Part shown: positions 1 through 55,240 of the stretch, in pieces
Position numbering within the stretch: position 1 is the first letter of the stretch
Layout of the letters: each line of letters begins with the position of its first letter
NCBI GenBank assembly: GCA_001816655.1
Contig: MHCP01000014.1
Coordinates: 27,068 to 91,067, forward strand
Source of the DNA: Candidatus Woykebacteria bacterium RBG_13_40_15
GTDB taxonomy: Bacteria; Patescibacteriota; Microgenomatia; Woykebacterales; RBG-16-39-9b
Length of the DNA stretch: 64,000 nucleotides
Direction of reading: 5' to 3'
Position numbers and translations under genes: made by a program
The notes under the pieces: model-generated
The model's input: the letters and a program-made list of their open reading frames with translations, nothing else
What the model was told of the DNA's origin: nothing
Databases searched by the model: none

Positions 1-1269
1 ATGAAAACTAAAAAAATTCATTTTATGGGGGTTGGTGGAACTGGCTGTTCAGCTGTTTATTTTATCGCTAAAAGTTTGGGGTACTCTGTTTCAGGCTGCG
101 ACAAGGAAATTTCTAGGTTTATTGGAACCGAAAAAGGAATCCAAAAAGGCCACAACGCCTTGCATCTAGTCGGAGTAGACTCTTTAGTTTACTCTCCTGC
201 TATTCCAGCCCTCGATCCTCAAAACCCTGAATTATTATCTGCCAAAGCTAGAGGTGTAGAAACTATGCCTTGGGAGAGGTTTGTTGCAAGGGAATTCCTG
301 AAGGATAAGTTTGTTATTGCGGTGTCCGGTACCCATGGCAAAAGCACGACAACGGCGATGATTGCCACGATTCTAGAGAAAGCAGGTTTAGATCCGACTT
401 GTTTAGTTGGGGCTATTGTAAATAGTTGGGGCCGAAATTTTCGTGTGGGAAAATCGAAATACTTTGTAATTGAGGCAGATGAGTACGGGGAAAAATTTTT
501 AGAATTTTCCGCGGATGCCGCTGTCATTACAAATATTGATTTTGATCACCCTGAGTATTTCAAAAACTTAGGAGAGGTGGAACTGGCATTTGAGAAGTTT
601 GTTAAAAATACAAAGGAAGGCTCGATCCTCATGACTGGCCCTGGTGTTAATATTCAAAATCCTAATGGTGAGACACTGAGAGTGGTATCCAACGGTTTTA
701 ATCTTAAGTTAATTGGGGAGTTTAATAAAACTAATGCAGCACTTGCTGCGTCGGTTGCGCGGAAGCTGGGTATTTCCGAAGAAACAATAAAAAGCGCGTT
801 GGAGAGCTTTTCAGGACTTGTTAGGCGATTCGAGTTTAAAGGCGAGGAAAAGGGTGTGGCCGTTTTTGATGATTACGCCCACCATCCAACCGCCGCTCTC
901 GAGACCTTAAAAGCCGTAAGAGAAAGGTTCCCAGACAAAAAAATCTGGTTAGTTTTTCAGCCCCACCTTTTTACGAGAACCAAGGCTCTTTTTGGCCAGT
1001 TTAAAGAAGCCTTTGAAAAAGCACCAGTTGATGAAATAATTCTGGTTGATATTTTTGCTGCAAGAGAAAAAGATACCGGAGAAATAAATAGTGGGGACCT
1101 CGCAAAAAGTATTGAAGGAAGGGAAGTAAAATATATCCCAGAGATAGAAGAAGCTGCAATTTACTTAGTGAAAGAAGTTTCTGCAGGAGACCTTGTAGTT
1201 TCTATGGGTGCTGGTGGTATCTCAAAGCTATCAGAAATTTTGCTAAAAAAATTAAAAGGAAAAGGATGA
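1..1269 (+). CDS. murC: UDP-N-acetylmuramate--L-alanine ligase
   Basis: N-terminal HFMGVGGTG dinucleotide-type motif and Mur-ligase P-loop GTHGKSTTT. 422 aa. First gene of the dcw cluster. Confidence 0.85.
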   Translation: MKTKKIHFMGVGGTGCSAVYFIAKSLGYSVSGCDKEISRFIGTEKGIQKGHNALHLVGVDSLVYSPAIPALDPQNPELLSAKARGVETMPWERFVAREFLKDKFVIAVSGTHGKSTTTAMIATILEKAGLDPTCLVGAIVNSWGRNFRVGKSKYFVIEADEYGEKFLEFSADAAVITNIDFDHPEYFKNLGEVELAFEKFVKNTKEGSILMTGPGVNIQNPNGETLRVVSNGFNLKLIGEFNKTNAALAASVARKLGISEETIKSALESFSGLVRRFEFKGEEKGVAVFDDYAHHPTAALETLKAVRERFPDKKIWLVFQPHLFTRTKALFGQFKEAFEKAPVDEIILVDIFAAREKDTGEINSGDLAKSIEGREVKYIPEIEEAAIYLVKEVSAGDLVVSMGAGGISKLSEILLKKLKGKG

Positions 1270-2162
1270 GCAAAGAGCTAATCAAGAAACTTGGATTTAA
1301 TCGAATAAAACTTAATGAACCGTTGTCAGAGCACACTTTTATTCAAGCGGGAGGACCGGCCGATTTCTATTATGAAGCGAAAATTTCAGAAGAACTAAAA
1401 GAGGCTGCAAAAGCGGCAGCTGCCGAAAAAATTCCTTTTGTGGTGATTGGTGCTGGTGGTAATATTTTAGCTTCGGATAAGGGGTTTCGAGGATTGGTAA
1501 TAAAGAATTCTTCAGAAAATATCAAATTTTCGCCATTTGATTTTGTTGAGGTGGATTCAGGGGTAAACAATAGTGAATTAATCACCGCTGCAAAGGATAG
1601 AGGCCTCACTGGTTTAGAAAGACTAATCAAAGTTCCGGGAACGGTCGGCGGTGCAATATACATGAATGCAGGGGATACAGCAAAATCTGAGTTTTTTGGG
1701 GATTTAGTTGAAACAGTGGCCGTCCTTGATCAAAATGGTGAGGTAAAAAAGTTGGGAAAAGAAGATTGCGGCTTTGCATATCGCACGTCTCGTTTTCAAG
1801 GTAGCGGCGAGATAATTTTGAGCGCCAGCATACAATTAAAACAGGCTACAAAAGAAGAGATAGAAAGTAAGGCGAAGGACGTTTTAGTTCGAAAAATGAA
1901 TCAGCCGACTGGTCCTTCAATGGGGTCAATTTTCAAAAACCCACCTGGAAATTTCGCTGGTAAGCTAATTGATGAAGCAGGTTTAAAAGGAAAAGAGGTA
2001 GGCAGTGCAAAAATATCGGAAAAACATGCAAATTATATAATCAATGAAGGTAGTGCTAAGGCTTCAGATGTAAAAGCTTTAGTAGATTTGGCAAAATCAG
2101 AAGTTAAAAAGAAATTTGGAATCGACCTCCAAGAAGAAATCCGCTATGTTGGGGAGTGGTGA
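1266..2162 (+). CDS. murB: UDP-N-acetylenolpyruvoylglucosamine reductase
   Basis: FAD-binding-type N-terminus (FIQAGGPADFYYEA...VIGAGGN) and MurB-like C-terminal region. ATGA overlap with murC. Confidence 0.8.
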   Translation: MSKELIKKLGFNRIKLNEPLSEHTFIQAGGPADFYYEAKISEELKEAAKAAAAEKIPFVVIGAGGNILASDKGFRGLVIKNSSENIKFSPFDFVEVDSGVNNSELITAAKDRGLTGLERLIKVPGTVGGAIYMNAGDTAKSEFFGDLVETVAVLDQNGEVKKLGKEDCGFAYRTSRFQGSGEIILSASIQLKQATKEEIESKAKDVLVRKMNQPTGPSMGSIFKNPPGNFAGKLIDEAGLKGKEVGSAKISEKHANYIINEGSAKASDVKALVDLAKSEVKKKFGIDLQEEIRYVGEW

Positions 2163-2217
2163 GGAACCGCACCGATATTCAGCACGGTTCCTCAAATCGG
2201 TAGTTGGGTGGTAGGTC

Positions 2218-2619
2218 TTATTGATCGTGGCAGGTACAGGGAAACTCGAAATCTCCGAAGAAGTGCCTCGGATGATCGTTGTGTACGTGGCAATCAAGGG
2301 CCTGACGGCCAGGGTAATCCTGGCACAGGCATTCTTGAGGGTACGGTAGGGTTTTCAGAACTGCCACGATTTTGTCCTCGACCTCAGGCCGTAGCCTTGC
2401 TTCCAAGCTGTGCAGGCACATAAGCTGCAATGTGGAATTGAATTCGTCGGGATCCTCGCAGGACAGGAGGAGCACCTGCGCGTCTCTGCTTTCCATTGGG
2501 CCTGGTTCATCTCGTCCTTGGACTCGCCATCGTTGCCCCCAGGCTTCTAACCTTTTGGTGTCTGGATTGAACCTGACTTCTACCGGTGCTAGTTCGATCG
2601 CCGTGCTTGTTTGCGACAT
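2218..2619 (-). CDS. hypothetical protein with Cys/His-rich C-terminus, encoded in a high-GC insert
   Basis: 133-aa ORF with GGAGGGAG RBS 5 nt upstream of the ATG. C-terminus CLCQDYPGRQALDCHVHNDHPRHFFGDFEFPCTCHDQ. GC content is clearly higher than the flanking mur genes. Confidence 0.45.
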   Translation of the reverse strand: MSQTSTAIELAPVEVRFNPDTKRLEAWGQRWRVQGRDEPGPMESRDAQVLLLSCEDPDEFNSTLQLMCLHSLEARLRPEVEDKIVAVLKTLPYPQECLCQDYPGRQALDCHVHNDHPRHFFGDFEFPCTCHDQ

Positions 2620-2728
2620 ACGGCTCCCTCCTCAGGATGGGTTTGATACTTCTCCAGCTCTTCTAACTAGGGAATAATAACAGAGCTAATCCCCCTCGGT
2701 CAACTATTAAGTTGTTTGACCAGGTTTC

Positions 2729-2757
2729 TTGCAATCTACTACTTGCTAGCTTAAAAT
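2729..2757 (+). promoter_or_regulatory. sigma70-like promoter (TTGCAA-17bp-TAAAAT) directly upstream of the murA ATG
   Basis: -35 at 2729-2734 and -10 at 2752-2757. The ATG at 2765 is only 7 nt downstream and there is no SD. Confidence 0.4.
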
Positions 2758-2764
2758 TAGGGAC

Positions 2765-4081
2765 ATGGCAAAATACATTATTGAGGGTGGCTTTCCCTTG
2801 AAAGGGAAAGTAGCTGTTCCTGGGGCGAAAAATGCCGGTTTTAAGTTAATAATTGCGAGCCTTCTTTCCGATGAAATTTCCACTCTAAGTAACATTTCTT
2901 ATATCCGCGACGTTATTTCAGTCAAAAAAATAATTGAGGCTTTGGGTGCAAAAGTTGCGTTTTCCGATGACACAATGCAGATTAGCGGTGGAATTAAAAC
3001 TTGGGAAGTACCAGCCGAACTTGGAATAGCTTCGCGGGCTTCTTTTATGTATTTGCCGGTTCTTCTGCATAGATTTAAAAAGGGAAAAGTTAATCTTCCT
3101 GTTGGCGATAAAATTGGTGATCGTCCGATAAACTGGTTTCTTGATGGTTTAAAGAAAATGGGGGCGGCTATTGTTGAGAATGATGGTTTAGTCGAAGTTA
3201 CCGCTCCAAACGGCCTTTCTGGCTGCAACTATACTTTTCCAAAAAATTCTCATACCGGAACTGAAGGTTTGATAATGGCAGCAGCTCTTGCTAGCGGAAA
3301 AACTAAGTTAGAAAATTCAGCTGCCGAGCCTGAAATTGATGATTTAATTGCCTTTTTGAACAAAATGGGAGCAAAAATCAGGCGGGTTTCGGAACGAACG
3401 ATTGAGATTGAAGGAGTAGTTTCTTTGAAAGGCGCTGTTCATAAGGTAATGCCAGACCGAAATGAAGTTGTGACTTTTGGTTGTATTGCTCTGGGTACCA
3501 AAGGGGACATTGAAATAGAAAACGCTAACCCTCAGGTCATTAAGGCATTTCTCGAAAAAGTTAAAGAGGCCGGTGGTGGAGTTGAAATGGCAGAGGGGGG
3601 CCTGCGTATTTTTTACAAAGGGGACTTAAAATCAACTAATGTCGAGACGAAACCGTATCCTGGTTTTATGACAGACTGGCAGAGTCTATGGACGGCTTTA
3701 ATGACTCAAAACTTTGGAGAATCGACTGTTCATGAAACAATCTTTGAAAATCGTTTTGGTTTTGTCCCAAGCTTGCAAAAAATGGGAGCAAAGATTGAAT
3801 TATTTTCCCCGAAGGTTACTAACCCAGCTAGTTTTTATAACTTTGATTGGAAAAGCGAATCTGAAAAATATCCTCACGCAGCAAAAATTTTTGGCCCAAC
3901 AAGGCTGAAAGGTAGTGATTTGGAAGTTACCGACATTAGAGCTGGTGCAACTCTTGTCTTTGCGGCACTTGCAGCAGAGGGCGAAAGTAGCCTTTCTGGT
4001 ATAGAGCATATCGAAAGAGGTTACGAAGACTTAGAAGGAAGGCTTGAACGTTTAGGCGCTAGAATCGGAAAGATAGAGTAG
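2765..4081 (+). CDS. murA: UDP-N-acetylglucosamine 1-carboxyvinyltransferase
   Basis: N-terminus MAKYIIEGGFPLKGKVAVPGAKNAG is typical of MurA/EPSP-synthase-fold enzymes. 438 aa. Confidence 0.85.
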   Translation: MAKYIIEGGFPLKGKVAVPGAKNAGFKLIIASLLSDEISTLSNISYIRDVISVKKIIEALGAKVAFSDDTMQISGGIKTWEVPAELGIASRASFMYLPVLLHRFKKGKVNLPVGDKIGDRPINWFLDGLKKMGAAIVENDGLVEVTAPNGLSGCNYTFPKNSHTGTEGLIMAAALASGKTKLENSAAEPEIDDLIAFLNKMGAKIRRVSERTIEIEGVVSLKGAVHKVMPDRNEVVTFGCIALGTKGDIEIENANPQVIKAFLEKVKEAGGGVEMAEGGLRIFYKGDLKSTNVETKPYPGFMTDWQSLWTALMTQNFGESTVHETIFENRFGFVPSLQKMGAKIELFSPKVTNPASFYNFDWKSESEKYPHAAKIFGPTRLKGSDLEVTDIRAGATLVFAALAAEGESSLSGIEHIERGYEDLEGRLERLGARIGKIE

Positions 4082-4090
4082 GGCTATTTT

Positions 4091-5290
4091 ATGAATGGCA
4101 GATTTTTCAAAAAAATTTTACATACCGGACGGAGATTTGCGGCCAAGTTTTGGATGTTGACTCATTCAAAAGTACAGGTAATAGGAATTACAGGAAGTTA
4201 TGGTAAAACGTATACTACGAGTGCCATTAGTAGTGTACTTTCGGAAAAATACAAAGTTCTACAAACTGATATTAACCTCGATACTCTTTATAATGTTCCA
4301 ATTACAGTTTTAAAACTTTCTGATCAACAAAAATTAGTTTTAGAGTACGGTATTGATCATCCAAAGGAAATGAGCGGGCATCTTTTTGTAGTAAAGCCGT
4401 CTATCGCAGTGATAACTGGTATTACACCAGTTCACGCCGACCCCGCTCATTTAGGATCCCTGGAAAACATTGTTAAGGAAAAAGGAAAGTTAGCTGAAGC
4501 TGCCTCAAAAAGGAAGGGTTGGATAGTAGCAAACTGGGATGATCAACTTGCAAGAAGAATTGCAGAGAGTGTAAAGGGAAAAATTATTTTCTACGGAAAA
4601 AACAGGTATCACTGCCAGTTTTGGGCCTCTCACATAAAGGTTCTTTCAAAAGGAACAAGCTTCAAAATGCATTTCAAAGGCCAAAGCCATAATGTCAAAT
4701 TACAACTTATAGGTAAACATCACGTATATACAGCGATGGCTGCTGTTGCTGTAGGGTACCTTTGTGATCTTAAATGGAGGGAAATAATTCGAGGCTTAGA
4801 AAAAGTTAAACCGCTTCCCGGTCGTGGCAACATTGAACTTGGTCCTAAAGAATCAATAGTTTTCAATGATTCGCGTCGGGCTAACCCCGCTTCAACGGTT
4901 GCGGGGCTCCAAACCTTGGCGGACTTTCCGGCAAAAAGAAAAATTGCCGTTCTTGGAGAGATGGGGGAGCTTGGTGACTATTCCGAGGAAGGACATCGCA
5001 GCGTTGGTAGAAAGGCGGCGGAAACAAAACCTGATTATTTGATTTGTGTTGGAGAGCAGACCAAATATATTGCTGATGAAGCCGAAAAAGGAATGAAAAA
5101 AGGGAAGGTAATTTGGGTCAAAGATGTATTTGAAGCTGCTGGAGCTCTCTCTGGGGTTTTGAAAAAAGGCGACCTCTGGTATTTGAAGGGCTCTCTGTTG
5201 AAACACTTAGAGCGGATCCCTCTAATTCTAGAAGGCAAAGATGTTGATCCTGACGAAATCGCTTCAAAACGCTACGAAGTCTACACTTAA
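4091..5290 (+). CDS. murF: Mur ligase family protein, MurF-like (UDP-MurNAc-tripeptide--D-Ala-D-Ala ligase), lacking the N-terminal domain
   Basis: P-loop GITGSYGKTYTT near residue 33. C-terminal domain NDSRRANPAST...IAVLGEMGELGDYSEE resembles MurF/MurE. 399 aa, shorter than typical MurF. Confidence 0.6.
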   Translation: MNGRFFKKILHTGRRFAAKFWMLTHSKVQVIGITGSYGKTYTTSAISSVLSEKYKVLQTDINLDTLYNVPITVLKLSDQQKLVLEYGIDHPKEMSGHLFVVKPSIAVITGITPVHADPAHLGSLENIVKEKGKLAEAASKRKGWIVANWDDQLARRIAESVKGKIIFYGKNRYHCQFWASHIKVLSKGTSFKMHFKGQSHNVKLQLIGKHHVYTAMAAVAVGYLCDLKWREIIRGLEKVKPLPGRGNIELGPKESIVFNDSRRANPASTVAGLQTLADFPAKRKIAVLGEMGELGDYSEEGHRSVGRKAAETKPDYLICVGEQTKYIADEAEKGMKKGKVIWVKDVFEAAGALSGVLKKGDLWYLKGSLLKHLERIPLILEGKDVDPDEIASKRYEVYT

Positions 5291-6372: not shown

Positions 6373-7740
6373 ATGTTGATTATGGATTTCAAAGGTAAAA
6401 AAATTGCAGTAATTGGTGCTGGTGTGGAAGGGCTTTCCTCACTAGAATTTTTTTCAAAAAAAGAAGCCTTACTATTTATATTGGACCAAAAAAACGAAAA
6501 CGAAATTAAAAGAGACAAGTTGGATAGGATAAAAGGTCTTGGCGCTAAAATAATTACCGGCAAAAATTATTTATCAAGCTTATCAGATTTCGATATTATA
6601 GTTCGATCGCCAGGGGTTAGGAGGGATTTGCCAGAAATAGTCCGCGCAGAAAAAAGAGGTGCTGTTGTAACATCACAAACTAAATTATTTTTTGATTTGT
6701 GTCCTGCAAAGATTATTGGTGTTACTGGTACGAAAGGAAAGGGAACAACATCAAGTTTAATCTATGAGATTTTAAAGCAGGCTGGGAGAGAAGTTTTCTT
6801 GGGGGGTAATATTGGAAAGCCACCTCTCGATCTTATTGATGAACTGACTAAGGAGTCCATCGTTGTTTTGGAACTTTCGAGCTTCCAACTTATTGATTTA
6901 GATAAAAGTCCCTACATTGCTGTGATCCTAATGATTACTAGCGAGCATCTTGATTGGCACAAAAGCCCTGACGAATACTTTAAAGCAAAGGAGACGATAG
7001 TAAAGTTCCAGAATGAAAATGATTCTGTAGTTATGAATGCGGATTTCGAACAGTCAAAAAAAATTGGGGATACTTCCCTCGCAAAAAAATATTATTTCTC
7101 CACAAAATCAAAAATAGGGCAAGGTGCATTTGTTGATGAGGACCAGATTGTATCAACCATTGGTAGCCTGCAGGAAGTTGTTAAGATTTCAGATATCAAA
7201 ATTCCCGGTGAGCACAATTTGCAAAATGTTGCGGCTGCGACCCTTGTAGCTGAAATTTTAAAAATTCCTGTTGATGCAATAAGATCAGCGGTTAGGTTAT
7301 ATAAAGGACTTCCGCATAGATTAGAGTTAATAGCAGAAAAAAACGGAGTTCCTTTTTACAATGATTCGGCTTCAACCAATCCGGAAACTACAATAGCTGC
7401 AATTTTGGCCTTTAAAAATCCAAAGATATTAATACTTGGAGGTTCAAGTAAGAACTCTAATTTTGATAATCTTGGAAAAGCGGCTTCCAATGAAAACGTA
7501 AAGGCAGTGATTCTGGTAGGACAAGAGGCAATAAGAATAAAACAGTCTTTGGAAAGAGCTAATTTTAAAGGACAGATCGTTGAGAATGTTGAAGAAATGC
7601 AGGGCGTTGTTGGTAAGGCTGTAAGTTTAGCCAATATGGGCGACGTTGTAATTCTTTCACCAGCGTGCGCCTCTTTTGATCAATATAAAAATTACATCGA
7701 GCGAGGGGAGAAATTCAAACAAGCTGTAAGAGAGTTATAG
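6373..7740 (+). CDS. murD: UDP-N-acetylmuramoylalanine--D-glutamate ligase
   Basis: KIAVIGAGVEG Rossmann N-terminus and GVTGTKGKGTTSS P-loop. Start moved to the ATG at 6373 to avoid overlap with mraY. Confidence 0.8.
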   Translation: MLIMDFKGKKIAVIGAGVEGLSSLEFFSKKEALLFILDQKNENEIKRDKLDRIKGLGAKIITGKNYLSSLSDFDIIVRSPGVRRDLPEIVRAEKRGAVVTSQTKLFFDLCPAKIIGVTGTKGKGTTSSLIYEILKQAGREVFLGGNIGKPPLDLIDELTKESIVVLELSSFQLIDLDKSPYIAVILMITSEHLDWHKSPDEYFKAKETIVKFQNENDSVVMNADFEQSKKIGDTSLAKKYYFSTKSKIGQGAFVDEDQIVSTIGSLQEVVKISDIKIPGEHNLQNVAAATLVAEILKIPVDAIRSAVRLYKGLPHRLELIAEKNGVPFYNDSASTNPETTIAAILAFKNPKILILGGSSKNSNFDNLGKAASNENVKAVILVGQEAIRIKQSLERANFKGQIVENVEEMQGVVGKAVSLANMGDVVILSPACASFDQYKNYIERGEKFKQAVREL

Positions 7741-27430: not shown

Positions 27431-27506
27431 GGGTCCGTGGTGTAGCGGTTAACATGCCTCTCTGTCGAAGAGGAGATCGCCGGTTCGAATCCGGTCGGAC
27501 CCGCCA
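27431..27506 (+). tRNA. tRNA-Asp (anticodon GTC)
   Basis: GGGTCCGTGGTGTAGCGGTTAACATGCCTCTCTGTCGAAGAGG...GGTTCGAATCCGGTCGGACCCGCCA. Confidence 0.85.
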
Positions 27507-27645
27507 CTTTTTCCAATTCTCAATTCTTAGTTATTACGTTGACATCTCATAGTTTGTTTTTTATACTAGCGACAAGCAACTAGGTTGAAAGTATAGAGAA
27601 TCATAAAAGCACCCACCATTTTCATATTCCAAGGAGGAAAAAGAG

Positions 27646-28461
27646 ATGTCAGAACTAACACTTCCTTTCACAAGGGACAGGCTTGGCACGCGGGAGATGT
27701 GCGAGCTAATTCTCCACTCAGGGCAGGTGGCTCTTCGCGACATCAATGCGGGAGAGCTTCCATTTGAGTACAGCGCTAACAAGGCTACTCTGGTTCCAGG
27801 GCCCCACGGGCCGATCCTTGAAGGGACTCCCCGTTTTGGTCCTGGCTACATTCTCATCAAGGCGCTTGTCAGCCAGGAACACACATTCTTCAGCCTGATC
27901 AATCAGCTCGCTCTCCGAGTGGTTGACGCCCGTGTGCGGTTGGACGGAATCTGCGGAAATGTCTCGGGAGGGATGATTCCAGGATTCGTCCTAAAGCTCT
28001 ACCTCTCACATCTCTACGGTGGCCCCGTCTACTACTTCTACGCTAGGGAGATGCGAAAAGAGCACGGTTCCCGAGAGATGTTGGTAGGGGTGGACAACAC
28101 ACCCTTCATAAAGGAGGGCATGAACTTCGGGGACGTCGAGGAGCTGGTCAACAATGCCCAGACAACCTGTAACGCCGCTCTCACTCTCAGGGCGTCAGGT
28201 TTCAGGTGCACGCATGCGATTACCATTCTAGATTACGCCAACTCGGCGGCGAAGATTCAAAGGGAGGCGATTAATCTGACACAGATAAGTCTGGTAACAC
28301 TTCCCGAGCTTTTGGCTTACGCAAGGGATGTGGGGAAGTGGCCAGGCCCCGTCATCGACGATTATCTTTCCTACCTCGAAAGTCCTGACGATTGGGCGGC
28401 GAGGAATCAGGAGGCGATCATCAGGACACTTCAGCAAAAAGAGGAGGAGCATCATGGTTAG
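27646..28461 (+). CDS. orotate phosphoribosyltransferase-like (type I PRTase fold) protein with a non-canonical PRPP loop
   Basis: High-GC ORF with AAGGAGG RBS. Block order ICGNVSGGMIPG, YFYAREMRKEHGSREMLVG and GDVEELVNNAQTTCNAALTLRASGFRCTHAITILDY parallels PyrE. The hhhhDDxxTGGT loop is replaced. Confidence 0.5.
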   Translation: MSELTLPFTRDRLGTREMCELILHSGQVALRDINAGELPFEYSANKATLVPGPHGPILEGTPRFGPGYILIKALVSQEHTFFSLINQLALRVVDARVRLDGICGNVSGGMIPGFVLKLYLSHLYGGPVYYFYAREMRKEHGSREMLVGVDNTPFIKEGMNFGDVEELVNNAQTTCNAALTLRASGFRCTHAITILDYANSAAKIQREAINLTQISLVTLPELLAYARDVGKWPGPVIDDYLSYLESPDDWAARNQEAIIRTLQQKEEEHHG

Positions 28462-29182
28462 GTTCAACGTCGATCTCAGTAGACCTATTCTCTGCCTCGC
28501 TCTTGATGAAGGCTCGCTTGAGGGCAACCTGAAGCTAGCTGAGCAGGCGGCAGGCGAAGTCGATATGCTGAAGATCAACGATGACTCCGTGGACGACGCG
28601 GGACTTAGAGCCTGTGTTGAGCCTTTCCTTCAGTTCAGGCTCCCATTTTGGGTCGACATGAAGATGCTCAAGGGCGCAAGAACCATGGGGGAAAGGGCTA
28701 CATCCGCTGCCAAGCTTGGCGCCTCATTCATCAACGCCTACGCTCTGGCTGAAAGGCTTCTCAAGGGTCCTGTTGATGCTCTTGTCGGGACTGAAACAGG
28801 CCTTTTGGGACTAACTGTCCCAACCCATTTTGGAGAGGCCTACTGTCAGCTGGTGTTCCGGCGATCGCTGCCGGACTCAGTCCGCTTTCTCTCCGAGATC
28901 GCAATGGTTCAAAGCCTCGACGGATTGATTCTTCCTCCGACAACGCTTTCCGCAGTCGAGGACATCGATACCATCAAAGCGACCCCTGCCATCAGATCAG
29001 ATTGGTCCGAGAAGAAGGCGAATGACCAAGAGTCGTCGGCAACGCCGGCGGAAGCGGTCCTCGGTGGATCGAAGATCCTGATCGTCGGCAGCCCAATCCG
29101 CAAATACCCTGATGGTCCGGCGGCAGGGGCACGGAGGATCAAGGAGGAGATGCTTGAAGCCTTTGAGCGAAGAGGCGCTTGA
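28454..29182 (+). CDS. orotidine-5'-phosphate decarboxylase-like protein (PyrF family, divergent active site)
   Basis: PILCLALD, LKIN, WVDMKMLK (where PyrF has DxKxxD), LLGLTV, TPAIR..ANDQ..TP, ILIVGSPI all collinear with PyrF. 8-nt overlap with the upstream gene. High GC. Confidence 0.6.
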   Translation: MVRFNVDLSRPILCLALDEGSLEGNLKLAEQAAGEVDMLKINDDSVDDAGLRACVEPFLQFRLPFWVDMKMLKGARTMGERATSAAKLGASFINAYALAERLLKGPVDALVGTETGLLGLTVPTHFGEAYCQLVFRRSLPDSVRFLSEIAMVQSLDGLILPPTTLSAVEDIDTIKATPAIRSDWSEKKANDQESSATPAEAVLGGSKILIVGSPIRKYPDGPAAGARRIKEEMLEAFERRGA

Positions 29183-29702
29183 GCTCCTTACCGAGCAACT
29201 GCCTTTGGCTTTGTCCTTTGCCATCACCGCCCACTCGGAATCTCCTAGGAGACCGGACAAAGCACTGCGGAGGCACGACGGCAGAACGCCTTACTACGTG
29301 CACCCTCTTTGGGGCGCAATGACTGTCCTCCAAGAGCCAAACTTGCCCTTTCAAGTGAGAATCCTTGGCGCGCATGTTCTTGCGTTCCACGACGTTCTGG
29401 AAGATACTACAGCGGAGCTTCCCGACTGGGTGCGTCCGCTTGTGAAGGAAGGCGTTGAGCAGATGACCTTCACAGACTTCGCGGAGGAGAGGCGATTGGT
29501 TTGGGGAAAGCCTGAGTGGATCTGGCTCCTCAAGCTGTACGACAAGGTCAGTAATCTCCTCGATGGATGGCCATGGATGCGTACCAAGGGTGAGGAGTAC
29601 ACTACTGCCTATAAAGCCTTCACTCTGGAACTAGCTAGAAGAGTGCGTGAGCACTTCGGCGAACTCCAGATCCTTAAGATTGCAGAAGCAATTTGCAAGT
29701 GA
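29112..29702 (+). CDS. Mesh1/SpoT-type HD-domain (p)ppGpp hydrolase-like protein (small alarmone hydrolase)
   Basis: AHSESPRRPDKALRRHDGRTPYYVHPL, AFHDVLEDT and KLYDKVSNL match the RelA/SpoT hydrolase signatures (H..R.SGEPYI.HPL, HDvvEDT, KLaDRlhN). Exact start uncertain. High GC. Confidence 0.6.
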   Translation: MVRRQGHGGSRRRCLKPLSEEALELLTEQLPLALSFAITAHSESPRRPDKALRRHDGRTPYYVHPLWGAMTVLQEPNLPFQVRILGAHVLAFHDVLEDTTAELPDWVRPLVKEGVEQMTFTDFAEERRLVWGKPEWIWLLKLYDKVSNLLDGWPWMRTKGEEYTTAYKAFTLELARRVREHFGELQILKIAEAICK

Positions 29703-29801: not shown

Positions 29802-31502
29802 ATGGAAAATAAATTTACAAACAAGGAAGTAGCAGCGTTATTGCGAAATGTTTCAGCTGCATACCAAGTTAAAGGACTCAACTATTTTCAAATACGTGCC
29901 TACGATACTGCTTCAGATGCTATAGAAAATACAGCTTCTGATATCAAGACTCTATGGGAACAAGGGAAACTCGATCAGATTCCGGGTATTGGTACTCACA
30001 TAGCAAATTACTTAGATGAGTATCTTACAACAGGTAAAGTTCGCCACTTCGAATCCGTTTTCAGACAAGTGCCAGAAGATATGTTCCGATTCCTCAAAAT
30101 CCCAGGTGTCGGCCCAAAAACCGCAGTTAAAATAGCAAATAGCGGGGTTGTGAGCATAAAAGATCTCGAGGAAAGAATTAAGAGTGGTTGGTTACTCAAG
30201 CATGACTTTGGTCAAAAAACCCTTGATAATATTTTGCGAGGAATAGAAGAGTTCAATCGAAAAAGCGATCGCTACTTGCTTCCAATAGCCGGAGAAATAG
30301 CAAAAGATGTAGTTAATTACTTGAAGCAAAATAAAGACGTTGTTTACGCAGATCCTCTAGGCAGTCTTAGGCGGAGATTATCAACTGTTGGCGACATCGA
30401 TATTGCTGCTGCTACAAGAAATCCAAAAGGTGTCTTAAACCATTTCGTAAAATACCCAGGTATTCACGAAGTAATTGAGAAGGGTGACACAACAGCTACT
30501 ATTCTGCATGGAAGTGGCATCCATGCTGACCTTATGGTACAACCACCAAATCACTATGGTTCTCTTCTGCAACACTTTACAGGCTCGAAAAGCCACAATA
30601 TTCATCTCCGTTCCTTAGCAAAAGAAAAGGGCTACTCAATATCAGAGTATGGTGTAAAAGAAATTAAAAGTGGAAAGAGCCTCGAATTTGAAAAAGAGGA
30701 GGGAATATACAAGCTTTTAGGCATGGAAACACCAATACCAGAAATCCGCGAAGATACTGGGGAGATTGAGGCAGCACTCGAAAATAAAATTCCAAGATTA
30801 ATCGACTTAAAAGACATCAAAGGAGATTTACATACCCATTCTTCCTGGAGTGATGGGCAAAATACTATTTCGGAAATGGCAGAGGCTGCAGCGCAACTGG
30901 GTAGAGAGTACATTGCCCTAACAGATCATAGTTACCCGAGCCTTAAGTTTGAGCAGAGGATAAAAGACATAGAACAATTTAATTACTCACAAGATAAAAT
31001 TAGAGTAATTTATGGACTCGAAGTAAATATAAATGTTGATGCAACATTACAAATAGCAGATGAGATACTAGAAAGACACGAGTTAATTTTGGTTTCTATA
31101 CACACTAGCTTTAGGCAGGAAAAGGACTTGATGACGAAGAGAATAATTAAGGCTTTGGAGAACCCTAACGTTGACATATTCGCTCATCCAACCGGAAGAC
31201 TTTTATTAGAGCGAGAAGGTATTGAAGCTGATTGGGAGCAAATTTTCAAGGTAGCAGCAAGGACTGGTACATTGATTGAAATTGACGCATATCCAAATAG
31301 ATTGGACCTTCCAGACACGTTAGTTAGGGAAGCTAAGCGTTTTGGGGTTCGGTTTACAATTTGTACTGATGCGCACCATACGGATCAGTTAAATTTGATG
31401 GAATATGGAATTTCAGTGGCTAGAAGAGGTTGGTTAGAACCAAAAGACGTAGTTAATACCTTGCCGTTCGAGAAGCTACGAGATATACTTAAATTCGATT
31501 AA
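29802..31502 (+). CDS. polX: DNA polymerase X family protein with C-terminal PHP phosphoesterase domain
   Basis: HhH motifs (GIGTHIANYL, IPGVGPKTA), PolX catalytic region and PHP motif LHTHSSWSDG...ALTDHS. Confidence 0.8.
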   Translation: MENKFTNKEVAALLRNVSAAYQVKGLNYFQIRAYDTASDAIENTASDIKTLWEQGKLDQIPGIGTHIANYLDEYLTTGKVRHFESVFRQVPEDMFRFLKIPGVGPKTAVKIANSGVVSIKDLEERIKSGWLLKHDFGQKTLDNILRGIEEFNRKSDRYLLPIAGEIAKDVVNYLKQNKDVVYADPLGSLRRRLSTVGDIDIAAATRNPKGVLNHFVKYPGIHEVIEKGDTTATILHGSGIHADLMVQPPNHYGSLLQHFTGSKSHNIHLRSLAKEKGYSISEYGVKEIKSGKSLEFEKEEGIYKLLGMETPIPEIREDTGEIEAALENKIPRLIDLKDIKGDLHTHSSWSDGQNTISEMAEAAAQLGREYIALTDHSYPSLKFEQRIKDIEQFNYSQDKIRVIYGLEVNINVDATLQIADEILERHELILVSIHTSFRQEKDLMTKRIIKALENPNVDIFAHPTGRLLLEREGIEADWEQIFKVAARTGTLIEIDAYPNRLDLPDTLVREAKRFGVRFTICTDAHHTDQLNLMEYGISVARRGWLEPKDVVNTLPFEKLRDILKFD

Positions 31503-49966: not shown

Positions 49967-51070
49967 TTAACTTGCGAGTTTTTCCCAGGGGAAGCAGTCT
50001 CGTCCGAAATGACCATAGGAAGCGGTTTTCTCGTAGATGGGTTTTCTTAAATCTAACGCTGCCAATATACCGTTTACCGATAAATCCATTAGGTTCCAGG
50101 CGAAGGATTCAATTATCGAGACCTTCTTTTTCTCTGTTCCAAAGCAATTAACTGCTTTTACCAGGGGGTCTCTTTGTCCAATTACATAAGCTATTTGTAC
50201 CTCAGCCATTTCGGCTAGTTGTGCGGCAACGATGTTTTTAGCTAAAAACCTCGCTGCATACGCAGCAGAGCGATCCATCTTAGTTGGATCTTTTCCAGAA
50301 AACGCTCCACCACCAACTCGCCCGAAGGCGCCGTACGAATCAACTATTATTTTGCGACCAGTGACTCCTGTGTCAGTTGCTGGTCCTGGGGTAATCCAAA
50401 TACCCCCGCCATTAACAATTAGGTCTTCTTTAGGGGTTTTAAGACCAAACGTTTCCAATACAGGTAATACAACGAATTTCAAAAGATCTTCCTTGAGTTG
50501 AAAATTACTAATATTCTCTTCGTGGCAAGCAGCTAAAACCACCCTTTCTAATGATTTTGGTTTATTATTTTTGTATTCAAAGGTAACCTCACTTTTTCCA
50601 TCTGGCCTCAAATAGGGAATTATTTTTTTCTCTCGAACGGCATCTAATTTTTCAACGAGTTTGTGGGCAATACTTATTGGAAGGGGCATTAGTTCTGGCG
50701 TTTCACCTACCGCATAGCCAAACATCATACCTTGGTCTCCGGCGCCTCCAGTATTAACGTCGGCGGAAATTTCAGGAGATTGTTCATGAATGTAAACTTG
50801 AATATCGCTTTCTGGAGAAAATTCGAATTTCTTGTTCGTATAACCGAGGCGTTTAATTACGCCCTGGGCGATTTTTTTATAATCCAAGCTCGCTTTTGTT
50901 GTTAATTCTCCAGCAATGACCATTCGATTTTTTGTCACTAAGGTTTCCACAGCTACTCTGGAGCAGGGGTCTTGGGAGATGGCTGCATCAACAATAGCAT
51001 CAGAGATCTGGTCGCAGATTTTGTCTGGATGGCCGGCGGCGACAGATTCTGAAGTAAAGTACTTATACAC
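49967..51070 (-). CDS. metK: S-adenosylmethionine synthase
   Basis: FTSESVAAGHPDKICDQISDA..., GGGAFSGKD. GTG start with AAGGAGG RBS. Confidence 0.9.
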   Translation of the reverse strand: MYKYFTSESVAAGHPDKICDQISDAIVDAAISQDPCSRVAVETLVTKNRMVIAGELTTKASLDYKKIAQGVIKRLGYTNKKFEFSPESDIQVYIHEQSPEISADVNTGGAGDQGMMFGYAVGETPELMPLPISIAHKLVEKLDAVREKKIIPYLRPDGKSEVTFEYKNNKPKSLERVVLAACHEENISNFQLKEDLLKFVVLPVLETFGLKTPKEDLIVNGGGIWITPGPATDTGVTGRKIIVDSYGAFGRVGGGAFSGKDPTKMDRSAAYAARFLAKNIVAAQLAEMAEVQIAYVIGQRDPLVKAVNCFGTEKKKVSIIESFAWNLMDLSVNGILAALDLRKPIYEKTASYGHFGRDCFPWEKLAS

Positions 51071-51094: not shown

Positions 51095-51230
51095 TTAAAA
51101 AACACTTCCCTCAAAGAGAAGTGCCACTAAACAGTTCCCTTTTCGGGCGCATCAATTTTGGCACCCTGCCTGTTTTAGGGTTGCCGCCCTCCGAAGCTTT
51201 ACGCGAAGGAGGGGCTCGAGATGCTTAATA
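51095..51230 (-). ncRNA. SAM (S-box-like) riboswitch candidate plus terminator in the metK leader
   Basis: Minus-strand leader contains GGAGGG..GCAACC and GGTGCCAAAATT, resembling SAM-I/IV core elements. A CACTTCTC-TTTGA-GGGAAGTG-TTTTTT terminator lies just upstream of the RBS. Confidence 0.4.
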
Positions 51231-54682: not shown

Positions 54683-55240
54683 CTAGCAGGAAATGGTGGG
54701 TGCTAATCGTAGTTTTCTCCCAACCCATTCAGCAAGTAGCGCGATTATCAGGCTGTGAGAAGTGCGGTGACGGCGGTCCGCATCTTCGGCCAGGACGTTA
54801 AGCACAAGGTGATCTGTATGCTCCTGCGTCCACTCTTCTCCTTTTCCAACACGAACCCGTCTCATGAGACTGAAGGCTGTGTCGAAATACTCGCCATGAC
54901 CGACATAGTACGTGCTTGTGAACCACCATCCTACGCGAGTCCATATCCGGCGCCAGCTGGGTGCTATCGTATCGCAGATCACATCGACAGTGACCAGTTC
55001 ACCCTTGAACAGGTGGTAAACGACGTAGACCGCTTTCCCATCAAAGGTTGTGTACATGGACTTTATCTGGTGATGGCAATCATGAAGCCATTCTTGGGCA
55101 GCGTATAGGATGTTGTTCACAAGCTTGGTTGTAACCACCACGTTTGGGAGTATTACCAAGAATATCCAGCGCGGCCAGTTGTGCCATGTGAAAGCATACG
55201 GACTATTGACCCTATTATCTATCATCTTAATGATGCTCAT
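54683..55240 (-). CDS. high-GC membrane-associated putative metal-dependent hydrolase (YdjM/DUF457-like?)
   Basis: His-rich motifs (HDCHH, HGEYFDT, HTDH) with hydrophobic segments. GC clearly above flanks. Confidence 0.3.
   Translation of the reverse strand: MSIIKMIDNRVNSPYAFTWHNWPRWIFLVILPNVVVTTKLVNNILYAAQEWLHDCHHQIKSMYTTFDGKAVYVVYHLFKGELVTVDVICDTIAPSWRRIWTRVGWWFTSTYYVGHGEYFDTAFSLMRRVRVGKGEEWTQEHTDHLVLNVLAEDADRRHRTSHSLIIALLAEWVGRKLRLAPTISC

Follow-up and report, generated by a model that had tools for sequence, protein, structure and literature searches.

How does a GC-rich gene read from the minus strand come to lie inside a cell-wall operon read from the plus strand, and what might its product do? 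The question is raised by ORF133, an open reading frame (ORF) of 133 residues located at 2218-2619 on the minus strand of a 64,000-nucleotide stretch of DNA (the window) from Candidatus Woykebacteria bacterium RBG_13_40_15. This organism is represented by a metagenome-assembled genome (MAG) of the candidate phyla radiation (CPR)/Patescibacteria from the Rifle aquifer, and the contig that contains the window is 91 kb long. The initial 13 kb of the window form a cell-wall and division cluster on the plus strand, mostly with tight coupling, in the order murC-murB-[ORF133]-murA-murF-mraY-murD-ftsW-murG-x-ftsA-ftsZ, where x is a 155-residue ORF. The original prediction, made from the sequence, had described a minus-strand ORF of this length and position with a Cys/His-rich C-terminus and taken it for the horizontal insertion of a foreign antisense gene. 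The ORF is present, starts with ATG and carries the C-terminal Cys/His sequence exactly as quoted. Exact-sequence look-up identified it as OGY24294.1 (UniRef100_A0A1G1W9J3), which is annotated as 'hypothetical protein A2172_00285'.

Horizontal insertion is supported by a comparison of the murB/murA junction with that of relatives, by anomalous codon usage, by the GC content at third codon positions (GC3) of the family elsewhere and by a second assembly of the locus. A horizontally acquired, functional and autonomous cassette is quite probable. The whole explanation, namely a foreign cassette at the murB/murA junction, a zinc-type product and a nucleotide-linked role, is given a probability of about 0.7. 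As proposed, a foreign cassette of ~0.5 kb (~2163 to ~2700) would have been gained horizontally and placed antisense in the junction. The cassette would comprise a promoter-like site, a strong Shine-Dalgarno sequence, the 133-residue ORF and a strand-specific 3' hairpin. Its insertion would divide the cluster into murC-murB and murA-murF-mraY-... units, with murA apparently served by a promoter-like element that abuts its ATG. The predicted product is a small acidic protein consisting of a β-β-β-β-α N-terminal half and a C-terminal Cys/His module.

Composition and codon usage of ORF133

The GC content is 0.540 in ORF133, 0.515 in the interval 2163-2764 and 0.403 in the whole window. GC3 of ORF133 reaches 0.582 versus 0.332 ± 0.035 in 57 host ORFs (z = 7.2), and only 2.3% of 402-bp segments have a GC content equal to or above that of ORF133, all of them within this or other discrete islands. 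Relative synonymous codon usage (RSCU) of ORF133 correlates at -0.20 with host genes, which correlate among themselves at +0.73, and at r = +0.39 with the other GC-rich islands of the window. Sliding composition and codon usage therefore both set ORF133 apart from the host and have the character of an acquired islet. The flanking genes are host genes: murB on the left (1266..2162, plus strand; OGY24293.1; Pfam FAD_binding_4 and MurB_C) has a GC content of 0.398 and a GC3 of 0.308, and murA on the right (2765..4081, plus strand; OGY24295.1; Pfam EPSP_synthase, 1.3e-70) a GC3 of 0.328. Further out on the same strand lie murC (1-1269), which overlaps murB by 4 nt, and a MurF-type ligase gene (4091-5290).

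The GC content steps up at ~2160, where murB has its stop codon, and has returned to host level by 2660-2720. The ~50 bp directly before murA are conserved with a relative (locus L004, described below), which places them in host DNA outside the insert. The GC-rich interval that had been noted at 2163-2764 is thus real and forms a sharp island, but its foreign part ends at ~2700 and not at 2764.

A high GC content could also reflect sequence constraint on an ancestral resident of the junction that was lost or replaced in the relatives L004 and L006. Family members from other lineages that carry the same Cys/His module have a host-like GC3 of 0.37-0.40, indicating that the protein sequence does not impose high GC. 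The anomaly of ORF133 is seen at synonymous sites (GC3 0.58 vs 0.33), codon usage is anticorrelated with that of the host, and the non-coding hairpin and 5' untranslated region (UTR) are GC-rich as well. The anomaly recurs in three other genes or islands of the window, all of them unrelated. Because the synonymous sites are still unameliorated, acquisition of ORF133 looks recent.

The murB/murA junction in relatives and in other assemblies

Patescibacteria MAGs from a one-per-species collection, with 60 related loci, served for comparison; the nearest of these genomes share a MurB identity of only 57-61% with the window genome. In L006, a single base separates the end of murB (6891) from the start of murA (6893). 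In L004, a 915-kb chromosome whose MurA is 70% identical, the same junction is occupied by an unrelated plus-strand gene of 233 residues with host-like GC (6967-7668), which encodes a protein with an N-terminal membrane anchor; between murB and this gene lies a perfect palindromic hairpin. The L004 record (OZ246414.1) is labelled 'Gammaproteobacteria'; the chromosome is Patescibacteria-like and the label seems wrong. No ORF133 homolog was detected by tblastn in any of the 60 related loci.

The junction comparison thus supports the insertion: murB and murA abut in one relative, another gene separates them in a second, and ORF133 is absent from the relatives. The murB/murA junction is apparently a variable spot in the clade, and ORF133 appears specific to the RBG_13_40_15 lineage. 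The antisense gene had been thought to violate a division and cell-wall (dcw) cluster that is normally tightly packed and co-directional. ORF133 is indeed antisense, but members of the clade differ at this junction, so that the operon is not uniquely violated. Being antisense and absent from L004, L006 and the other 58 loci, ORF133 is not a core gene of the dcw cluster. It is extra DNA relative to L006, where the flanking genes are adjacent, with the caveat that the relatives are distant and that L004 has a different gene at this place.

Variability of the junction, the presence of a gene there in L004 and the distance of the comparison genomes are also what would be expected if ORF133 were the ancestral resident. 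The conserved murA promoter-like element described below points in the same direction, showing that the break in the operon is older than the insert. Set against the synonymous-site anomaly, the GC-rich non-coding parts and the host-like GC3 of the family elsewhere, ancestral residence is judged distinctly improbable.

The island might instead be an artefact of assembly or binning, either a chimeric join or a contaminant. The MAG derives from a complex aquifer metagenome, and several GC-rich patches lie on one contig. A separate ENA assembly (L001) matches window positions 1-2844, spanning both junctions, with a single substitution at position 2310 that changes a variable position of the Cys/His module (Gly104Arg). 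The agreement of a second assembly across both junctions argues against a chimera. Neither of the observations named beforehand as refuting the insertion was made: the close relatives do not carry the gene, and the junctions show no fault. Host synteny on both sides would require two exact breakpoints at gene boundaries, and the regulatory signals are intact. A third data source (SRR4030042) contains a fragment of the ORF133 protein together with a fragment of another GC-rich gene of the window. A chimera, like an artefact of any of these kinds, is very unlikely.

Regulatory signals of the cassette and of murA

The strong ribosome-binding site claimed for ORF133 was confirmed: the Shine-Dalgarno sequence GGAGGGAG (2624..2631, minus strand), read from the sequence, lies 4 nt 5' of the ATG. 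A sigma70-like promoter, TTGACC-18-(TG)TATTAT, is predicted at 2674..2703 on the same strand by a consensus scan (10/12 matches). This promoter-like site is 55 nt upstream of the ATG and predicts a 5' UTR of ~48 nt. The closest homologs, at L002 and L003, are likewise preceded by a conserved TGnTATAAT and a GGAG of their own.

A GC-rich inverted repeat lies at the other end of the cassette (2160..2194). The perfect inverted repeat noticed earlier at the murB side is real and longer than claimed, its arms TGAGGAACCG and CGGTTCCTCA (2160-2169 and 2185-2194) pairing perfectly over 10 bp and including the murB stop codon, TGA (2160-2162), as the leading 3 nt of one arm. On minus-strand RNA the repeat folds into a 16-bp stem including G-U pairs with a 3-nt loop and a folding free energy (dG) of -26 kcal/mol. 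This fold has a z-score of -5.55, and none of 200 shuffled sequences folds equally well; the plus-strand fold of the same repeat is unremarkable (z = -0.37). Because the repeat folds well only on minus-strand RNA, it is assigned to the ORF133 transcript. The hairpin, positioned 24 nt 3' of the ORF133 stop codon, is best read as the 3' stem-loop of that transcript and not as the end of a mobile element. It may additionally block read-through from murB. No significant conserved 3' hairpin was found in the homologs at L002, L003 and L070.

Upstream of murA, the consensus scan revealed a promoter-like element, TTGCAA-17-TAAAAT (2729..2757, plus strand), which ends 7 nt before the murA ATG. Both hexamers and the 17-nt spacing are conserved 5' of murA in L004 (7680-7722), where another gene is inserted, and in either genome only 6-7 nt separate the element from the ATG. 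This conservation indicates that the element is host DNA rather than part of the insert, and that it predates, or is independent of, the ORF133 insertion. L006, in which murB and murA abut, lacks the element. A leaderless or near-leaderless murA mRNA is predicted in both the window organism and L004, as a conserved trait of this Patescibacteria clade.

The arrangement of these signals leaves room for a cell-wall-linked function, in which ORF133, recruited for its position, would be transcribed divergently and would regulate or assist murA and the dcw genes that follow. ORF133 is head-to-head with murA, with ~25 bp between the predicted -35 elements (2698-2703 on the minus strand and 2729-2734 on the plus strand), a layout common for regulator-target pairs. 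The protein is acidic and has no helix-turn-helix (HTH) or other known DNA-binding domain, the nearest genomes found do without it, and no family member elsewhere adjoins mur or fts genes. A role in regulating murA is accordingly rated improbable.

ORF133 belongs to a rare family with a Cys5His3 module

Only three relatives of ORF133 were found among 5.8 billion clustered proteins, one of them 99% identical and two 52-55% identical. A profile search of 1.84 billion representatives returned 21 clusters. The ratio of nonsynonymous to synonymous substitution (dN/dS) is 0.10 for the pair P0002 and P0003, which indicates purifying selection; between ORF133 and either 52-55% homolog, nonsynonymous divergence (pN) is ~0.3 and synonymous sites are saturated. 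ORF133 is a real protein, of a family under strong purifying selection. P0014 comes from a Saccharibacteria MAG, and both family members with an organism name belong to CPR bacteria.

All family members share a conserved C-terminal module, which in ORF133 is encoded at 2230..2343 on the minus strand (residues 93-130). Its consensus is Y-P-Q-x-C-x-C-x7/8-A-x-D-C-H-x-H-x3-P-x-H-F-x-G-D-x4-C-x-C, which in ORF133 takes the form Y-P-Q-x-C-x-C-x7-A-x-D-C-H-x-H-x3-P-x-H-F-F-G-D-x4-C-x-C. Y93, C97, C99, A107, D109, C110, H111, H113, H119 and C128 are invariant in the 23 sequences and C130 is near-invariant. A degenerate DNA pattern of the module has one match in the window, where 0 are expected. The eight conserved candidate ligands (5 Cys and 3 His) probably bind zinc, plausibly two ions.

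An AlphaFold2 (AF2) model built with 16 sequences has a mean predicted local distance difference test (pLDDT) score of 79 and a predicted template modelling (pTM) score of 0.61. The modelled fold contains four β-strands, a long helix (residues 57-88), the Cys/His loop and a terminal β-hairpin. Foldseek gave no significant match for it in the PDB (best E 0.6) or in BFVD (best E 0.03, TM ~0.3). ORF133 had no hits to Pfam, PHROGs, NCBIfam or PADLOC profiles, and profile scans of 16-23 family members to E<=10 gave no recurrent weak hit and no Pfam zinc finger. The profile search suggested for the 133-residue protein thus matched no curated family. Searches of PDB sequences also gave no significant hit, whether the query was the single sequence or a profile of the module or of the full length. 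The Cys5His3 module thus appears previously undescribed, and the family seems rare and uncharacterised.

ORF133 has a predicted isoelectric point (pI) of 4.9, and the family is uniformly acidic, with values mostly of 4.5-5.7. The acidity argues against a conventional DNA-binding regulator. As an HTH is lacking too, ORF133 would work by contacting proteins or nucleotides and not as a DNA-binding regulator of the classic kind.

The C-termini of P0017, P0023 and P0024 hold a second Cys-rich tail after the Cys5His3 module. Its pattern, C-x2-C...F-S-G-x-H-[FY]-F-C-x2-C-A-x-x-E-x-x-F-G-Q-E...[FY]-W, is zinc-ribbon-like and unclassified.

Mobile elements and phages as a possible source

The flanks of the insert contain no bracketing direct repeats of at least 10 nt, no target-site duplication and no terminal inverted-repeat pair, and no transposase, integrase, recombinase or phage gene was present among the ORFs of the region. 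A transposon, insertion sequence or integron was rejected, as the only strong inverted repeat has both arms at one end (2160-2194) and a recombinase is absent. A toxin-antitoxin or defence gene was likewise rejected, since ORF133 stands alone without a partner and has no match in PADLOC.

The cassette could also be the remnant of a phage or mobile-element 'moron', or a transduced piece, with a phage-type accessory or anti-host function. Small acidic proteins are typical among phage inhibitors. Morons are defined by a GC content that differs from that of their neighbours, by a promoter and a terminator of their own and by their presence as extra DNA relative to related genomes (PMC3594210), and the predicted anatomy of the ORF133 cassette fits this definition. 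Like phage morons such as the HK97 gene 15 element, the cassette is an independent unit between genes that are adjacent in relatives; it resembles them in its differing GC and in its promoter-like and terminator-like elements, both of them predicted. One family member, P0021, is fused to a phage methyltransferase-like region, and its contig is itself phage-like, encoding a LexA-type repressor as well as the small and the large terminase. The closest relatives, P0003 and P0004, lie among small ORFs that have no Pfam family.

Several observations are at odds with such an origin. Unlike phage morons, ORF133 sits in a chromosomal cell-wall operon with no phage genes nearby, and neither integrase or transposase genes nor att or target-site repeats were found at the site. 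Its hairpin has no U-tract, and its family did not turn up in the viral collections searched. Peptide patterns and a degenerate invariant-residue pattern gave 0 matches to the family in 2.9 million IMG/VR viral contigs, although the latter pattern recovers known family members, and a locus scan with the module alignment returned 0 viral loci and 1 metagenome locus. A tblastn search of 50,697 phage genomes gave nothing significant, 72,556 plasmids contained no family match, and the stand-alone proteins matched no PHROG. Where enough surrounding DNA is available, family members mostly sit among chromosomal housekeeping genes. A moron remnant or transduced piece is therefore considered unlikely. 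A phage moron in the strict sense was rejected: the flanks are murC/murB and murA/murF/mraY, and the viral, phage and plasmid collections are without a match.

Genomic contexts of the family and a possible function

The contexts of other family members suggest a link to nucleotide metabolism. At L064 the gene order is secE-nusG-L11-L1-DCD-Tmk-ThyX-[member]-SHMT-...-L10, and at L065 it is L1-...-dCMP deaminase-DHFR-ThyA-[member]-SHMT; the member and SHMT are kept while ThyX is swapped for ThyA and DHFR. At L069 the order is ThyX-[member]-Nudix-like. A mini-protein consisting of the module only is encoded between RmuC and TatD at L072, with a Nudix gene nearby. P0023 and P0024 are fused to an NTPase of the ITPase/XTPase type (PF01931). 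The remaining neighbourhoods include LemA, HtpX and LigA (L067), an SMC-like ATPase and RNase III (L071), and the phage-like surroundings of P0021 described above (L068).

Since members adjoin ThyX or ThyA, SHMT, Nudix, RmuC and TatD genes or have NTPase- or methyltransferase-like fusions, a role of the family in deoxynucleotide or nucleic-acid metabolism, concerning thymidylate or deoxynucleoside triphosphates (dNTPs), is tentatively proposed. A more specific and more doubtful proposal is that the Cys5His3 module and the β4-α N-domain together define a new metal-binding family, whose members would assist the thymidylate cycle and dNTP-pool sanitation, for instance as scaffolds, sensors or inhibitors. 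Under that proposal the family would reside mainly on chromosomal contigs, and the Woykebacteria copy would be a recent, free-standing capture, whose donor might be of the kind that supplied the pyrimidine-related island described below.

The islands at L064 (5547-13244) and L065 (17-6351) are thymidylate/folate gene islands lying between the genes for ribosomal proteins L1 and L10, with DCD, Tmk, ThyX and SHMT in the former and dCMP deaminase, DHFR, ThyA and SHMT in the latter. L1 is unusually long in both (317-318 residues), and ThyX of L064 has 597 residues.

Several points weigh against the explanation as a whole. With respect to function, the link to nucleotide metabolism is seen in ~6/11 contexts, and the three Thy-linked members form one subfamily, possibly a single lineage. 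Thymidylate-cycle genes were searched for in the window and none was found, so ORF133 adjoins none. The Cys/His module is modelled at a pLDDT of only 55-76, and zinc binding is a prediction. With respect to the cassette, the ORF133 promoter is a consensus match, the hairpin is without a U-tract and a scan for canonical terminators made 0 calls. With respect to acquisition, L001 shares its study and BioSample series with the window and hence counts as a re-assembly, not as a fully independent data set. At 57-61% MurB identity, the relatives are distant enough to leave a small probability for loss there rather than gain here. The closest homologs (52-55% identity) have a GC content of 0.48-0.50, lower than that of ORF133, with unlike codon usage, and no donor was found.

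If the foreign cassette is accepted, an essential and tightly coupled cell-wall operon of a streamlined CPR genome can take up a foreign, antisense and autonomous gene, and the murB/murA junction is a recurrent acceptor site in the clade, apparently buffered by the murA promoter-like element. The Cys/His module is rare, strongly conserved and unclassified, and the genes near or fused to it elsewhere make it worth testing for a new part in the deoxynucleotide metabolism of organisms reliant on nucleotide salvage. Horizontal gene transfer (HGT) into Patescibacteria is already documented, and neither point overturns current understanding; the event is a real but fairly ordinary gene acquisition.

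Comparison with known protein families and genomic islands

The lambda antitermination protein Q, in its zinc-finger region (PDB 4mo1, 7ubj-7ubn), was the only protein to surface in the PDB sequence searches. It matched the full-length profile at E = 0.04-0.07 (best 0.038), and the three hits appear to be constructs of one Q protein. The alignment covers a 40-residue stretch, a helix followed by Y..C....DCH, and ends mid-module at 'DCH'. Both are small zinc-type proteins with a phage or mobile association. The Q zinc site has the form C-x2-C...C-x2-C; the ORF133 module differs from this site in its order C-x-C...C-H-x-H...H...C-x-C, and the Cys just upstream of 'DCH' in Q faces an Ala in ORF133. 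The ORF133 family is also acidic, unlike Q. Membership of the lambda Q family was rejected, the match being non-significant, the ligand pattern different and a Foldseek PDB hit to Q lacking; the resemblance is no more than a lead.

RING/PHD-type and CXC/pre-SET-type clusters are cross-braced or binuclear zinc modules with eight ligands. The ORF133 module resembles them in having eight Cys/His within ~35 residues, including C-x-C pairs, which suggests two metal sites. Its ligand spacing and order appear to match none of these modules, and its origin is bacterial (CPR).

NrdR-type proteins are small zinc proteins encoded with deoxynucleotide-synthesis genes. The ORF133 family is likewise small, Cys-rich and linked in some lineages to genes of dNTP or dTMP synthesis. 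In contrast to NrdR, its members are acidic, have neither a zinc ribbon nor an ATP-cone, show no sequence similarity to it and are linked to ThyX, ThyA and SHMT rather than to ribonucleotide reductase.

At the genome level, Patescibacteria frequently contain HGT islands and single transferred genes, among them genes of nucleotide metabolism, of which thyA is one example (Gios et al. 2025, PMC12455944). The window fits this picture in being part of a streamlined aquifer CPR genome with compositionally distinct acquired genes, and in nucleotide-metabolism acquisitions, its largest island holding phosphoribosyltransferase-like and orotidine-monophosphate (OMP) decarboxylase-like genes. ORF133 differs from such islands as a single-gene islet of ~0.5 kb, antisense within an essential operon, for which no donor was found.

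Other GC-rich islands and features of the window

At least four GC3-outlier islands, including that of ORF133, are present in the 64 kb. Their codon usage is intercorrelated (r 0.2-0.6), ORF133 included, and does not correlate with that of the host. The largest (27560-29702) has a GC content of 0.53-0.57 and a GC3 of ~0.61 and contains ORFs at 27646-28461, 28328/28460-29182 and 29112-29702. These encode a phosphoribosyltransferase-domain protein (so named in UniRef, without a Pfam match), a protein resembling OMP decarboxylase (PF00215) and a 196-residue protein that belongs to no family. For a CPR genome, they have the appearance of acquired genes of the pyrimidine type. The island starts ~55 bp after a tRNA-Asp gene (27431-27506); no tRNA-linked att-like direct repeats were found at it. 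The other two islands are single genes on the minus strand, an acyltransferase gene (PF01553; 41153-42121, GC3 0.53) and a gene for a 185-residue hypothetical protein without a Pfam match (54683-55240, GC3 0.575).

Directly downstream of the largest island, a gene of host composition on the plus strand (29802-31502) encodes a PolX-family DNA polymerase with a PHP domain. On the minus strand, a SAM-I/IV riboswitch match (51120-51229; 42.6 bits vs a gathering threshold of 41.1) lies upstream of a 367-residue ORF (49967-51070).

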